Shown: positions 20,500 through 46,192, counted from the stretch's first letter. The stretch is 52,349 bases of DNA from Chloroflexota bacterium (GCA_021778805.1 JAJYBV010000009.1:1-52349); one strand, 5' to 3'. Program-made: numbers and translations. Notes: generated by a model not told the origin, from the letters alone.

Positions 20500-20830
20500 G
20501 TGGATGGGCAGCCATAAAACGAACACCACACGATGAATCACGTGGCTTGTTTCCCCATTTCCTCCACCCATGTTGCGGTGCGCAATACTCAATATTTCGC
20601 ATGAATTGCTATATGAATACAAACACAGCGCGGTACACATTGAGGCAATGCAATCCGGTAGGGGCGACCTTTGCGGTCGCCCTTGCCACCCGGCAAATAA
20701 TATTGCATTAGGGAATAAAAAGATATTTTGGGGACACCCCAAACCCCGCGCAAGGGGCTACCGCCCCTTACGTATCCCTGGTTACGCAGGTATATCTTAT
20801 CCCTCTTTAAAAGTGAAAGATCATCATCAT
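20500..20830. repeat. Composite repeat element comprising the 'aaaacgaacaccacacgatgaatc...' module, one GGGGACACCCC unit, and the terminal 'cgtatccctggttacgcaggtatatcttatccctctttaa' segment.
   Basis: Each of the three parts recurs in the roughly 650-bp copies at 40560-41215 and 45541-46192. Confidence 0.7.
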
Positions 20831-21007
20831 GTGGCTTGTTTCCCTACTTCCACTTATTTTGCCACCATGTGGTATTTGTTCTTTTTATCAACTACATCAA
20901 TGCAAGCTGTTTCTCTTAAATTCCCCTATTGACGGCTTTATTCATTTCGTGTATAGTGGGTTTGTGCGGATTACCGCACATATTTTATTCATAATTAAGG
21001 AGCTTTT

Positions 21008-21112
21008 ATGAGCGCAAATCGATTGCAAAAGCAAGCCCCCACACGGCTACAAGCACACGGCTACAAGCACACGGCTACAAGCACACGGCTACAAATATTC
21101 TACTATTGTTAG
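21008..21112 (+). CDS. Candidate 34-codon upstream ORF (leader peptide) containing four 14-bp tandem repeats.
   Basis: An AAGGAG Shine-Dalgarno sequence lies 5 nt before the ATG at 21008. The ORF MSANRLQKQAPTRLQAHGYKHTATSTRLQIFYYC ends at TAG 21110-21112, 5 nt before the TTG start of the next gene. It is too short for the supplied ORF track. Confidence 0.3.
   Translation: MSANRLQKQAPTRLQAHGYKHTATSTRLQIFYYC
21041..21096. repeat. 14-bp direct tandem repeat (acacggctacaagc) in 4 copies, 3 of them perfect.
   Basis: Read directly at 21041-21096. The unit length is not a multiple of 3, and the repeat lies inside the upstream ORF. Confidence 0.9.
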
Positions 21113-21116
21113 AATA

Positions 21117-22304
21117 TTGAGCGCCTTCTTATTGATGATGGGATTCATTTTATCCTTGCCGGCGCCTTCCTATGCTTCTACCACCAACACCGGCCCAAAT
21201 AGTGATAACCCTGCTGCTTCTCCCGCTTCCTCACCTGCTGCTTCACCTACCGTGCGGCTTCGTGAGCCGGTTAAGCAGAACCCAACTTGGGTTGCAGCAA
21301 AATACTCTTTTCGAGTGTTTAGCGGCATTAATCCGAATCTTCCAATTAAAGGTCAAAAAATCTCTCCATTCGTCTTGCCCATCAGTCCTTTAAAATGCCC
21401 TACGCCTGTTGCTAACAGCGCTGCACCCAATCCTTTGTGTGGCTCAACACCTCCAACTGCCTATACCTTAACTCAAGATACCTATAACAAAAATACTTGG
21501 GAACCCAGCGACGGCACAGAACCCAATTCTCCCGGAGGCAGCTCTGCGGATGATCTTGGTGACGCATATAATTCAAATATTCCTGGCGTTCCAAGCAATA
21601 AAGATTTTTATGACCTGTGCGGTCCCGGCGCTACAGATATTGCCTTGGATTTTTGGCCGGCTCCGCCTAATTTGCTGGAAAACGTTACGGATGATCCCGA
21701 TTATGATAAAGCTGTTAACTATACCAGAAGCATTAACTTGCAAACTTATTGGAACGGCACTCGCATGCGCGGCTATATGACTTATCTCGCTTGGCAAACA
21801 CAAGCGCCAACTTGGCCTACAGCTGGCATGATGGATACCAGCACATACCCTTCAAATGGCGTTACTGAGTATGATATTCAAGATGCGCTCAATTGGGAAG
21901 CTTCAGGCCATAATGTGAGCACATGGCAGAACTATTTTTACTTAATAACTTGGTGGAATAAATCCTCTGCAAGCGGATTAAATCAAGACGTTGTTACAGA
22001 TGTTGCAAATTCACATGTTCCCGTTGTTGCTGAAGTAAACGCCGCTATGCTGCCAAATTGGGTAGATCATGGACCAGGTCTTGTAAAGCATCAGATAGCG
22101 ATTATTGGCTACGATAACATAAAGGGAACCTACACCTATGTTGATACCTGCGCAAATTTTACAAAATGTAATGTCGAAACTAATCCAATTAACGAAAACA
22201 ATTGGCATACTGTTCCACAATCAACCATGTGGCAAGCCATAATCGCGGTACCTGTCAACACCAGCCCGCTGCCGCAATACGGTGATGGCGGCTGGGTGTG
22301 GTAA
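21117..22304 (+). CDS. Secreted papain-like cysteine peptidase (Peptidase_C39_2/BtrH-like fold) with an N-terminal Pro/Ser/Ala-rich linker.
   Basis: It has a hydrophobic N-terminus. The candidate catalytic Cys is in L-C-G-P-G-A-T-D-I-A, the His in H-Q-I-A-I-I-G-Y-D-N, and the Asp in Y-V-D-T. The start is a TTG at 21117, or an ATG at 21138. Confidence 0.4.
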   Translation: MSAFLLMMGFILSLPAPSYASTTNTGPNSDNPAASPASSPAASPTVRLREPVKQNPTWVAAKYSFRVFSGINPNLPIKGQKISPFVLPISPLKCPTPVANSAAPNPLCGSTPPTAYTLTQDTYNKNTWEPSDGTEPNSPGGSSADDLGDAYNSNIPGVPSNKDFYDLCGPGATDIALDFWPAPPNLLENVTDDPDYDKAVNYTRSINLQTYWNGTRMRGYMTYLAWQTQAPTWPTAGMMDTSTYPSNGVTEYDIQDALNWEASGHNVSTWQNYFYLITWWNKSSASGLNQDVVTDVANSHVPVVAEVNAAMLPNWVDHGPGLVKHQIAIIGYDNIKGTYTYVDTCANFTKCNVETNPINENNWHTVPQSTMWQAIIAVPVNTSPLPQYGDGGWVW

Positions 22305-22461: not shown

Positions 22462-23676
22462 ATGCAAAAACATATCATCTCTCGCTCATCCTTATCCCTT
22501 AAAAAAACACTTCTGCTATTTCTTTGCTTGGCTAGTATCAGTTTTTCCGCTTGCTCCAGCACGAGCATTGCCATACACAAAACCCCTGCGCCTACAGCAA
22601 CAGCAACACATGCGCCATCTGCTCCTTTCCTCGTTTCTTCGCAATGGCAGGTAGCGTATATTGATCAAACAGGAACGCTCCATGGTGTTACCCTGGATGG
22701 CAAACATGACCAAACTGGAAAACAAATTCAAGACCCCGAACTTACATCACAACAAAGCCCTGGGTTTCTGTGCAGTTCTATCAGCCCGGATGGGCATACC
22801 TTCAGCATGGATCTCAGTCAGTTTATGACCATTGATATTCGCGGAGTAACCCCTGATAGATTAGCGTCATTGCAATTTTTAGCATATGAATCGTTTTGGT
22901 CACCATTAGGAGACAAAGAAGCAGTTTTAGGCGGTGATTATGATTTCTATATCATCAATACTCGTGATGGAAACCCAGTCCGAATACCTTTTGATAATCT
23001 TACTCATCGTTTTAACATTGTAGGATGGATTGACGAAACACATCTTTTAATAGAAACTGAAACATTAGTACCAGGAAGCTCTGTAAACGTTTACTATACT
23101 GCTGAGTCGCTGAATATTGCCACAGGAAAAGCCACCATAATAGGTTCATTGTATCATGCTGAAATGCCGCAAGTGGCTGGTTTTATTTCTCCAGACGGCA
23201 AAACAGTTTTTATCTTTGATGTAGATGAGCAAGATAATCCCTTTCAACTTGTGCTGGCAACCATGAATCTGCAAACCGGGCAAATTACTCAATACCCGCA
23301 TATTGCCGCTGTTTTACAAAATAAAGATGTTATTACAAACGCGGTATGGAAACCCGGTTCCCAGGAATTAGTGCTGACCACCGGATTCCAAGAAAATAGT
23401 GATCTGCAAACCTGGATTGTGCATTTAGACACCGATTCCATCACTCCTTTGGTCGCAAATCAATTTGCCACCGCATGGAACGCCGAAACCAACACCATTC
23501 TTACCATTTCCGCCAATAATGGAATGGGTGATGGAGGAATTGCCGTTGATCGATCTGACCCTATTACCATATACGCCAATGCGCTGGATGCGCAGGAGCG
23601 CCCAACCAGTACCATATTAACCAAAAATGCTTATTTTACTTCAAACTTGGGGTTTATTCCGCCATCGCAACCGTAA
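22462..23676 (+). CDS. Lipoprotein with a TolB-like beta-propeller.
   Basis: The signal peptide carries an L-S-F-S-A-C lipobox. Repeated 'SPDG(H/K)T' blade motifs are present. Confidence 0.45.
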   Translation: MQKHIISRSSLSLKKTLLLFLCLASISFSACSSTSIAIHKTPAPTATATHAPSAPFLVSSQWQVAYIDQTGTLHGVTLDGKHDQTGKQIQDPELTSQQSPGFLCSSISPDGHTFSMDLSQFMTIDIRGVTPDRLASLQFLAYESFWSPLGDKEAVLGGDYDFYIINTRDGNPVRIPFDNLTHRFNIVGWIDETHLLIETETLVPGSSVNVYYTAESLNIATGKATIIGSLYHAEMPQVAGFISPDGKTVFIFDVDEQDNPFQLVLATMNLQTGQITQYPHIAAVLQNKDVITNAVWKPGSQELVLTTGFQENSDLQTWIVHLDTDSITPLVANQFATAWNAETNTILTISANNGMGDGGIAVDRSDPITIYANALDAQERPTSTILTKNAYFTSNLGFIPPSQP

Positions 23677-29934: not shown

Positions 29935-30400
29935 TACCTACTCAGAGGGTATCATGCTTTTGCCTGGCCACATATGCCAAGGATTTGTAAGGGGCGGTAG
30001 CCCCTTACGCGAGGTTTGGGGTGTCCCCAAATACATTTTTTATATAAAAAGGAAACACCGCACGGTACACACAGGGATTCATAAGGGGCGGTAGCCCCTT
30101 ACGCAGGGATTGGGGTGTCCCCAAAATCTCTTTTTTTATATAAAAAGGAAACACCGCACGGTACACACAGGGATTTGTAAGGGGCGGATGCCCCTTGCGC
30201 GGGGTTTGGGGTGTCCCCAAAATTATTAATAAAAACCATATTCGCAAAGCAATATTGGCAGCGCTTGTGCTTCGGAGCGGTGTAGGTGGCCATCGGCCAC
30301 CAACGCCGCACTGGAGCGCAAACGCCGTACCGTATTTTTTATGTTATTTGGATACTCCTCCCTCTTTGCGGATTTTGTCAATATCTCTTGAGTAGTTACG
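29935..30400. repeat. MITE-like element with imperfect terminal inverted repeats (GTA(C/A)CTACTCAGAG) containing a tandem array of three palindromic units of about 95 bp.
   Basis: The left end is tacctactcagagggtatcatg. The right end is tctcttgagtagttacg. Units start at about 29981, 30075 and 30171, and each contains ggggcggtagcccc and ggggtgtcccc hairpins. Confidence 0.7.
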
Positions 30401-35585: not shown

Positions 35586-35613
35586 TGTTCATGTCATTTA
35601 CACCGACATAACT

Positions 35614-35649
35614 TGGTTATTTTGGTTATTTTGGTTATTTTGGTTATTT
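35614..35649. repeat. 9-bp tandem repeat (ttggttatt) in 4 copies.
   Basis: Read directly. The last copy overlaps the stop codon of the minus-strand gene 35644..36135. Confidence 0.85.
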
Positions 35650-36135
35650 TGCAAATTCTTGCGCTTTAATCAGCGGCCATAAACCTATTGCAACTCCATA
35701 CATTAAATGCTCAACAGTAAATGACGGCCAGCCAATTGTCGAAGGCATCGATCCCGATCCGATAATCGGCAATACCACAAAACTCATGACCAATAAAATA
35801 ACCACACCATACATCATTCCAGCCGCCACAGAAACGAAACCGGCTATATGCAAGGCGCGCGCCGCAAAGCCATATATAATCCCAAATACCGCCGAAACCA
35901 TCATGTGAATAACTAAGCCAATCATCGCAGGGCCAAGTGTAAAGTAAAAACTCTGGCCCATTGATGTTTCCATTGCCTGCTTTCCAACTATTGGCGCAGC
36001 TATGCCATAAAGCGGTGTAAAAAATCCTTGATGTAAAAATGTCACGGAAGCCATCATGGCGTACATCGCCATAACAACCCCCGCAATTATACCGGCAATA
36101 GCGCCGTTCACTACAAATTTTCCTGTGTTTCCCAT
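35644..36135 (-). CDS. Hypothetical integral membrane protein, 163 aa with about 5 TM helices.
   Basis: The hydrophobicity pattern is clear. No family was recognised. Confidence 0.45.
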   Translation of the reverse strand: MGNTGKFVVNGAIAGIIAGVVMAMYAMMASVTFLHQGFFTPLYGIAAPIVGKQAMETSMGQSFYFTLGPAMIGLVIHMMVSAVFGIIYGFAARALHIAGFVSVAAGMMYGVVILLVMSFVVLPIIGSGSMPSTIGWPSFTVEHLMYGVAIGLWPLIKAQEFAK

Positions 36136-40559: not shown

Positions 40560-41215
40560 CTTTAATTATTAAAAAGGGATATGATATACCTGCATAACCA
40601 AGGATACGTAAAGGGCGGTAGCCCCTTGCGCGGGGTTTGGGGTGTCCCCAAAGTATCTTTGTAAAAACAACCACCGCACGGTACACATGGGGATACGTAA
40701 GGGGCGGTAGCCCCTTGCGCGGGGTTTGGGGTGTCCCCAAAATATCTTTGTATAAACATCCATCGCACGGTACACATGGGGATACGTAAGGGGCGGATGT
40801 CCCTTACGCGGGGTTTGGGGTGTCCCCAAAATATCTTTGTATAAACATCCACCGCACGGTACACATGGGGATACGTAAAGGGCGGTAGCCCTTTGCGCGG
40901 GGTTTGGGGTGTCCCCAAAATATCTTTTTTTAAACATCCACTGCACGGTACACATGGGGATACGTAAGGGGCGGATGCCCCTTACGCGGGGATAGGGGTG
41001 TCCCCAAAATATCTTTTTTTATTTTTCCGATGGGAAATATTGGTGGCAATACGGCCACAAAACGAACACCACACGATGAATCGTGTGGCTTGTTTCCCCA
41101 CCTCCACCCGTGTGTAGCCGTGCAGTGATTATATTAAAACAAGCGCGATGGGGCACTCAATGTACTCTGCTCTGTTGATCTTCATCCTAATGAAAATATC
41201 AAAGACCATATGCCT
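40560..41215. repeat. Composite repeat, left copy. It comprises a terminal segment, five 89-bp tandem GGGGTGTCCCC palindromic units, and a roughly 185-bp 'aaaacgaacaccacacgatgaatcgtgtgg' module.
   Basis: Units start at 40602, 40691, 40780, 40869 and 40958. The 41035-41212 segment is almost identical to the reverse complement of 45541-45730. Confidence 0.85.
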
Positions 41216-45545: not shown

Positions 45546-46192
45546 TGGTCTTTGATATTTTCATCAGGATGAAGATCAACAGAGCAGAGTACATTGAGTG
45601 CCCCATCGCGCCTGTTTTAATATAATCACTGCACGGTACACATGGGTGGAGGTGGGGAAACAAGCCACACGATTCATCGTGTGGTGTTCGTTTTGGGGCC
45701 ACCTTGCCATCCAATATTTCCCATCGGAAAAATAAAAAAAGATATTTTGGGGACACCCCTATCCCCGCGTAAGGGGCATCCGCCCCTTACGTATCCCCAT
45801 GTGTACCGTGCGATGGATGTTTATACAAAGATATTTTGGGGACACCCCTATCCCCGCGCAAGGGGCTACCGCCCCTTACGTATCCCCATGGGTACCGTGC
45901 AGTGGATGTTTTTACAAAGATACTTTGGGGACACCCCAAACCCCGCGCAAAGGGCTACCGCCCTTTACGTATCCCCATGGGTACCGTGCGGTGGTTGTTT
46001 ATAAAAGATATTTTTGGGGACACCCCTATCCCCGCGCAAGGGGCTACCGCCCCTTACGTATCCCCATGGGTACCGTGCGGTGGATGTTTATAAAAAGATA
46101 TTTTGGGGACACCCCTATCCCCGCGTAAGAGGCATCCGCCCCTTACGTATCCCTGGTTACGCTGGTATATCTTATCCCTCTTTAATTGTTAA
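45541..46192. repeat. Composite repeat, right copy, an inverted duplicate of 40560-41215.
   Basis: Five 89-bp units start at 45749, 45838, 45927, 46016 and 46105. The terminal segment is cgtatccctggttacgctggtatatcttatccctctttaa. The inner roughly 185 bp are about 97 % identical to the reverse complement of 41035-41212. Confidence 0.85.

Follow-up and report, generated by a model that had tools for sequence, protein, structure and literature searches.

In a 52,349-nucleotide stretch of DNA from a Chloroflexota bacterium (GCA_021778805.1 JAJYBV010000009.1:1-52349; hereafter the window, meaning this whole stretch), a gene for a predicted secreted papain-fold enzyme lies on the plus strand with a tandem array of a 14-bp unit at its 5' end. 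It is probable, at roughly two chances in three, that this array constitutes a repeat-driven translational phase switch in the region coding for the signal peptide. In this model the locus would be a single gene, transcribed from a promoter at 20929-20957 and translated from an ATG at 21008 that is equipped with a Shine-Dalgarno (SD) sequence. The 14-nt repeat would lie in the part encoding the n-region of the signal peptide, such that slipped-strand gain or loss of units moves the start codon through three phases. Arrays of 2, 5 or 8 copies would be ON, giving a preprotein of 422, 436 or 450 amino acids (aa) with a basic n-region and a full hydrophobic core. At other copy numbers the gene would be OFF, translation ending after 20-60 codons; the enzyme, if made in these states, would arise through weak re-initiation at SD-less TTG or ATG codons and would carry a signal peptide without a basic n-region. 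Slippage is the presumed mutational mechanism, reversibility within a population is likewise presumed, and the effects on expression and secretion are predicted ones.

Reading frames and signals at the 5' end of the gene

Tandem Repeats Finder (TRF) places the array, of unit CACACGGCTACAAG, at 21040-21094 (3.9 copies, 100% matches, score 110), with full units at 21040, 21054 and 21068 followed by a partial unit of 13/14. It is the top-scoring short-period array of the window, and a search of both strands found no further occurrence of the unit in the window. A first-pass annotation of this DNA had described four repeats at 21041-21096; the array is real, although its limits are those given here and the fourth copy is incomplete, ending ...CAAAT. 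The array begins 32 nt after ATG 21008 and is free of stop codons in all three forward frames. The same annotation correctly described a 34-codon open reading frame (ORF) with AAGGAG 5 nt before its start: the ORF occupies 21008-21112 and the AAGGAG 20997-21002. The TAG stop of this ORF (21110-21112) does fall just ahead of the proposed peptidase start, although at 4 nt rather than the claimed 5 nt before TTG 21117, which heads a 395-codon ORF ending at 22304.

It had also been pointed out that 14 is not a multiple of 3, so that gain or loss of a unit shifts the frame, and this arithmetic is right. ATG 21008 is offset by +1 from the frame of the enzyme and, as 14 = 2 mod 3, the gain of one unit or the loss of two brings it into that frame. 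When copy number was varied in silico from 1 to 9, 2, 5 and 8 copies produced single ORFs of 422, 436 and 450 aa, and all other counts produced short ORFs of 20-60 aa. With 3 copies, the upstream ORF encodes 32 aa and ends at a TGA overlapping TTG 21117 (TTGA). The enzyme frame is itself open back to 21012, with no ATG, GTG or TTG in that frame before 21117, and thus the 34-codon ORF and the large ORF amount to one gene lying in two frames. As read from the sequence, the 'upstream ORF' is the displaced first part of the enzyme gene, the 4-copy allele of the window being out of frame. The first-pass view of a separate regulatory upstream ORF is not supported by this comparison, since 2, 5 or 8 copies fuse ATG 21008 to the enzyme and the outgroup described below has one ORF.

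The elements of the locus are listed here; lineage B denotes a sister lineage of 70% identity, and lineage A the window together with contigs nearly identical to it.

20929-20957, plus strand: sigma-70-type promoter-like site, TTGACG-17 nt-TATAGT (10/12 matches)
20963-20980, plus strand: stem-loop TGTGCGG-ATTA-CCGCACA with a 7-bp stem, at the predicted 5' end of the transcript (z = -3.5)
20997-21002, plus strand: SD sequence AAGGAG, 5 nt before ATG 21008 (from motif and conservation)
21008-21039, plus strand: putative true start of the enzyme gene with the pre-repeat codons MSANRLQKQAP (from synonymous third-position changes against lineage B)
21040-21094, plus strand: polymorphic tandem array of CACACGGCTACAAG (TRF, 3.9 copies)
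21008-21112, plus strand: 34-codon ORF, read as the enzyme N-terminus gone out of frame after the repeat (ends with the TAG at 21110)
21093-21116, plus strand: codons KYSTIVRI in the enzyme frame, putatively encoding the basic end of the n-region of the signal peptide (no start codon precedes them in this frame)
21117-21176, plus strand: putative h- and c-regions of the signal peptide, SAFLLMMGFILSLPAPSYA, with predicted cleavage after SYA (from charge and hydropathy count)
21177-22304, plus strand: predicted mature papain-fold (Peptidase_C39_2-like) domain, stop codon included (from model and homologues)

Comparison of the two lineages bears on which frames are translated. Ahead of the repeat, in the frame of the ATG, four of the differences that separate A from B are synonymous third-position changes (TTG/TTA Leu, CAA/CAG Gln, GCC/GCT Ala and ACA/ACG Thr), which argues that the ATG 21008 frame is translated. 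After the repeat, the KYSTIVRI codons compare between A and B as Y/L, S/T, T/T (synonymous), I/V, V/T, R/H and I/I, and the replacements are conservative.

The fused N-terminus, ...KYSTIVR-ILSAFLLMMGFILSL-PAPSYA followed after the predicted cut by S, combines a basic n-region with a hydrophobic core and a small-x-small motif. The n-, h- and c-regions were assigned by hand count of charge and hydropathy, not by a trained predictor; on this count, fused versions carry 2-7 Lys/Arg in an n-region of 18-40 aa (5-7 Lys/Arg and 26-40 aa for the fused forms that lead into ILSAFLLMMGFILSL), whereas internal-start versions in lineages A and B have zero Lys/Arg before the hydrophobic core. A simple count finds at least one Lys/Arg ahead of the core in 38/49 homologues (median 3). 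The n-regions of other family members measure 23-35 aa, and in a 12-member alignment 9/12 proteins have 20-35 residues ahead of the starts as called in the database proteins P0001-P0003. To judge from these counts, fusion at 2, 5 or 8 copies restores what appears to be a normal signal peptide with a basic n-region.

The nearest outgroup protein, P0004 (55% identity), is encoded by a single uninterrupted ORF without repeats, preceded by TTGACA-17-TATAGT and a 5' hairpin and beginning at a start codon followed by a 23-aa basic n-region. It is carried by a Logan contig (L163, ERR10900029) whose positions 1-27 read AGTGGTATCAACGCAGAGTAC, followed by TAGGGG. We take this 5' end to resemble a template-switch cDNA adaptor, which would presumably make the run a transcriptome-type library and the locus a transcribed one.

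Upstream of ATG 21008, both promoter hexamer regions are conserved in the alignment with lineage B, as is TAAGGAGCTTTTATG (100%), and AAGGAG at 20997-21002 is among the strongest SD sites of the window. In three lineages the -10 box is directly followed by a stem-loop, whose sequence differs from lineage to lineage and whose stem measures 7, 5 and 7 bp: lineage B has a weaker 5-bp hairpin at the matching place (L005, about 48-63), and the outgroup a 7-bp hairpin of different sequence, judged by eye (L163, about 152-172). A hairpin at the 5' terminus of the mRNA looks to be structurally conserved across the three lineages, and its role would be that of a 5' stabiliser rather than an attenuator of the repeat switch.

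The internal candidate starts, TTG 21117, TTG 21132, ATG 21135 and ATG 21138, are all without an SD, and database gene calls begin at 21132 (P0064) or 21135 (P0001). TTG 21117, which the first-pass annotation had offered as a start of the peptidase, is TTT in lineage B and, in common with the other internal starts, has no SD.

Copy-number variation and conservation in two lineages

Copy number in related strains, the check that had been proposed for the repeat, proves variable: near-identical contigs have 3 or 4 copies, and those of the sister lineage 1 or 5. All of these numbers were taken from assembly consensus sequences. Against the 4 copies of the window, the 3-copy allele is present in at least six distinct near-identical contigs (L001, L002, L003, L004, L148 and L159), as read from DNA for L001-L004 and from the called 32-aa ORF for L148 and L159. 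The flanks of the array in L001-L004 are identical to those in the window, and over 5.1-7.2 kb BLAST aligns them to it with 0-1 mismatches and a single gap, of 14 columns, such that the repeat unit accounts for practically everything that sets these genomes apart. The contigs, which belong to several NCBI third-party metagenome-assembled genomes (MAGs) and ENA assemblies, were found through P0001, the database version of the enzyme, and through neighbouring genes. Look-ups with the 404-aa protein encoded downstream of the enzyme, a 94-aa ORF and a histidine kinase returned only 3-copy contigs or contigs that stop short of the repeat. The 390-aa protein P0064, assigned to a contig of 56,442 nt that could not be traced, probably represents the 4-copy allele of the window. 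An exact-pattern scan of species-representative genomes gave no match to the pre-repeat flank. Given the variation in copy number, the first-pass suggestion of a repeat-driven switch acting on a secreted enzyme is plausible.

The two closest other proteins, P0002 and P0003 (70% identity), derive from two contigs of one sample and belong to lineage B. A 14-bp array stands at the same position there, with a unit, CGCCAACAAACACA, that is 11/14 identical to CACACGGCTACAAG after rotation. The two contigs carry 1 and 5 copies, the copies being internally perfect, and the in-frame states in lineage B are 0, 3 and 6 copies.

As all the sequences are metagenome assemblies, the differences in copy number might be errors of short-read assemblers. 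The first 141 nt are common to L005 and L006 and represent a branch of the MEGAHIT graph at k=141, and the contig of L007, the GTDB representative "Ktedonobacteria bacterium isolate clean5", breaks just after the repeat, beginning 13 nt before the called start. The arrays are only 14-70 nt long, however, below both the final k-mer (141) and the read length, such that real reads must be expected to span them; the lineage-B arrays, being shorter than k, would be read-supported for the same reason. Moreover, the 3-copy allele recurs in independent assemblies and several samples, with flanks identical to the base. An assembly artefact is, on this evidence, very improbable.

The body of the gene is under purifying selection. 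Over 388 downstream codons, lineages A and B show a ratio of nonsynonymous to synonymous substitution rates (dN/dS) of 0.16-0.19, with dS about 1.1, and no stop or frameshift interrupts these codons in the four sequences, or lineages, compared. With this ratio and no other disruption, the gene can be regarded as functional. Two variants of the enzyme gene from one lineage-B sample are about 15% different in DNA, and dN/dS within this lineage (L005, L006 and L007) is 0.36-0.42, higher than between the lineages, which could reflect relaxed or diversifying selection.

A non-adaptive explanation would treat the array as a hypermutable indel hotspot, a neutral or slightly deleterious minisatellite by which the start has been put out of frame, in a gene now turning into a pseudogene. 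Out-of-frame alleles are the only ones seen, the higher dN/dS within lineage B fits such a course, and other tandem arrays are common in these genomes. Set against this, the array has been kept at the same site, with its 14-nt period and with homogenised units, over dS about 1.1; the 388 downstream codons are intact in four lineages, and the promoter, SD and ATG are conserved between A and B. A perfect array retained over this distance, beside a gene on which purifying selection acts, speaks against a pseudogene in decay, and neutral decay is considered unlikely.

All matches to the family are Ktedonobacterales or other Chloroflexota sequences, apart from those in some myxobacterial MAGs. When 147 family loci, taken from genome and metagenome collections, were scanned with TRF, no comparable coding-region array came to light outside lineages A and B; the other arrays in those loci are a 10-bp unit x3 upstream of one paralogue and a 49-bp unit x7.3 in the 5' leader of another. 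The latter array, which is perfect, occupies positions 1936-2295 of L011 (Ktedonobacterales bin_006, CP126532.1, about 3.89 Mb), between a consensus promoter, SD and ATG-AGA-TAA and a paralogous C39-like gene with its own start. Since the 49-bp unit has stops in all frames, it forms a variable 5' leader and not a coding repeat. The 5' end of a second member of this gene family, then, also bears a tandem array.

The proposed switch weighed against other readings

Several considerations weigh against a phase switch. All four alleles seen are out of frame (3 and 4 copies in lineage A, 1 and 5 in lineage B), an outcome with a probability of about 0.2 by chance alone, and the in-frame protein is absent from a collection of 15 billion proteins. 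In exact look-ups in the protein collection, the short peptides expected for 1, 4, 6 and 7 copies were also absent, the 32-aa peptide of the 3-copy allele alone being present. Slippage should be slower in arrays of 1-5 copies than in the long tracts of classical systems, and it is impossible in the 1-copy allele of lineage B. The near-identical contigs of lineage A may stem from one population. The product of TTG 21117, with about 12-15 hydrophobic residues, might be exported, and the TTGA overlap in the common 3-copy allele may favour re-initiation, in which case the OFF state would be leaky. The signal peptides were assessed by hand count and not with a trained predictor. Finally, the missing SD at internal starts would seem to carry little weight because only a third to half of the window genes use one (an SD core is found at the longest-ORF start in 10/33 genes and at some start within the first 40 codons in 18/33).

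Alternatively, the 32-34-codon ORF could be a genuine leader, with the enzyme translated by re-initiation at the adjacent SD-less TTG or ATG, the repeat number tuning the coupling and the fusions being incidental. The positions of the stops lend themselves to this account: the TGA overlaps TTG 21117 in the 3-copy allele, the TAG lies 4 nt before it in the window, and of the out-of-frame stops of lineage B one is 2 nt ahead of ATG 185 and another 9 nt ahead of TTG 176. Furthermore, all observed alleles are split and the gene body is under purifying selection, so that the enzyme must be expressed somehow. However, any frameshift in a stretch coding for a Leu/Phe-rich hydrophobic core should soon run into an off-frame stop, and the closeness of stop and start is therefore not special; the stops are at non-homologous positions in lineages A and B, the overlap with TTG 21117 is confined to the 3-copy allele of lineage A, and this codon is TTT in lineage B. 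The enzyme-frame codons upstream of TTG 21117 evolve like coding sequence, re-initiated products would be without the Lys/Arg-bearing n-region found in 38/49 homologues, and the outgroup has a single ORF. A leader of this kind is rather doubtful. The translational coupling envisaged in the first-pass annotation fares similarly: with non-homologous stops and no conserved geometry, it could account for no more than some leakage in the out-of-frame states.

Among known systems, the one nearest to that earlier idea is pil1 of Streptococcus gallolyticus, in which GCAGA repeats lie in a leader ORF upstream of a terminator and their copy number changes the length of the leader (PMC3894217). In both cases, the short ORF whose length changes with repeat gain or loss precedes genes that encode surface or secreted proteins, and leader-peptide length might accordingly be thought to set transcription attenuation here as it does in that documented system. 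pil1, however, needs a terminator hairpin downstream of its leader, and the leader never fuses, whereas at the window locus every third copy number fuses and no terminator-like site was found on the plus strand between 20981 and 22500. The stop-start gap between the repeat and the enzyme ORF is only 4 nt, and the sole hairpin, at 20963-20980, is upstream of the SD. As no terminator separates repeat and gene, a pil1-type attenuation switch was rejected; its probability is close to nil. A paper on tandem repeats in M. tuberculosis was also set aside as a parallel, since it deals with promoter repeats and not coding frameshifts.

For a repeat-driven phase switch, by comparison, there are precedents with the same frame logic. 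In the Neisseria opa (P.II) genes, CTCTT repeats are located in the signal-peptide-coding region and their copy number sets the frame of the start, with one in-frame and two out-of-frame phases (PMC3899988). The window locus is alike in having a repeat that is not a multiple of 3 in signal-peptide DNA, with copy number setting the frame relative to the mature protein. It differs in that its unit is 14 nt, present in 1-5 copies, rather than 5 nt in many copies. The opa products are outer-membrane adhesins of a host-restricted pathogen in which switching has been measured, whereas the present gene encodes a papain-fold enzyme of uncultured Ktedonobacteria known from assemblies alone.

The meningococcal autA and autB genes carry AAGC repeats just after the ATG, again in signal-sequence DNA; in the vast majority of strains autB, though intact, is out of phase, and its copy number varies within clonal complexes (PMC5118866). 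The window locus resembles autB in that all alleles seen are OFF and the gene body is conserved. That autB can remain intact and yet be out of phase in nearly all isolates blunts the objection drawn from the OFF alleles. The two systems are otherwise unlike, autA and autB having a tetranucleotide in 3-40 copies and encoding autotransporters of Gram-negative pathogens, for which in-frame strains and expression have been demonstrated.

The enzyme, its surroundings and wider meaning

The first-pass annotation had called the gene product a papain-like peptidase. Its papain-like fold is supported by AlphaFold2 and Foldseek, and its peptidase activity is putative. Direct scans of the window protein gave no Pfam and no NCBIfam family match, and a profile of 12 family members found no match among PDB sequences. 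Weak matches to PF13529 (Peptidase_C39_2) occur in 8/12 close homologues, with a best E-value of 2.8e-4; precomputed PF13529 matches exist for many more distant homologues, and BtrH_N matches are also found among the homologues. The AlphaFold2 model has a mean-confidence score (pLDDT) of 84 and a predicted template-modelling score (pTM) of 0.85, with pLDDT below 50 only at residues 1-36. Foldseek searches of the PDB with this model returned papain-fold enzymes at the top, namely the primitive phytochelatin synthase Alr0975, xylellain, cathepsins and AvrRpt2, with a probability of 1.00 and E about 3e-4. Cys162 (codon 21618-21620) and His319 (codon 22089-22091) are invariant in 63 homologues. 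The model supports a papain-like fold, and the protein is like Peptidase_C39_2 and the papain clan (Alr0975, xylellain) in this predicted fold and in its invariant Cys and His, but it lies below the Pfam and NCBIfam thresholds. The enzyme may be a peptidase or a transferase.

Right after the signal peptide, an imperfect 12-bp repeat (CCTGCTGCTTCA, 21210-21248, 3.2 copies, 74% matches) runs in frame and encodes a Pro/Ala/Ser-rich linker, PAASPASSPAASP. The next gene (22462-23676, plus strand) starts 158 nt after the enzyme and encodes the 404-aa protein mentioned above, whose N-terminus is lipoprotein-signal-like (...SFSAC) and which has a weak match to the PG1828 lipoprotein family and a weak match to the YqgU beta-propeller. 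A gene follows the enzyme at equal spacing in lineages A and B and in the outgroup, with orthology confirmed within lineage A only. The 404-aa protein could be a partner or inhibitor of the enzyme.

Elsewhere in the window, a two-hairpin element of about 45-60 nt, AAGGGGCGGTAGCCCCTT-GCGC-GGGGTTTGGGGTGTCCCCAAAAT, is present in 11 copies when up to 3 mismatches are allowed. One copy stands alone just upstream of the enzyme promoter (20725-20769, minus strand), and the others form three intergenic tandem arrays with a period of 89-96 bp (29981-30223, plus; 40602-41016, plus; 45738-46153, minus). The second hairpin of the element and its U-run score as terminator-like, the fold z-score is only -2.1, and the element has no Rfam match; indeed, Rfam gave no family match anywhere in the window. 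A perfect 9-bp x4.3 array (TTGGTTATT, 35613-35651) coincides in part with the 3' end of a minus-strand ORF at 35644-36135; its period is a multiple of 3.

Nearly all known cases of repeat-driven phase variation are in host-adapted pathogens, where the units measure 1-8 nt. The present locus would join this known class of repeat-driven contingency loci, and what is unusual about it is the 14-nt unit and the host phylum. No paper on phase variation in Ktedonobacteria was found in the literature searched. A more elaborate proposal, and a tentative one that we hold to be rather unlikely as a whole, is that these non-pathogenic Ktedonobacteria possess a three-state 14-nt switch: one phase would give SD-driven, secretion-competent enzyme, and the other two a short peptide plus re-initiated enzyme without a basic n-region, so that the repeat would set the dose of the enzyme and possibly its location, exported or retained. 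If true, this three-state switch would be the first contingency locus in Chloroflexota within the literature searched, with an unusually long repeat unit.

Two lineages of uncultured, metagenome-known Ktedonobacteria, separated by dS about 1.1, have each retained a 14-nt array at the same codon position, which suggests that a secreted 'public-good' enzyme may be switched at random in non-pathogens as well. Gene callers split the locus into an ORF of 32-34 aa and a 5'-truncated enzyme of 389-390 aa, and loci of this type would thus be systematically mis-annotated.

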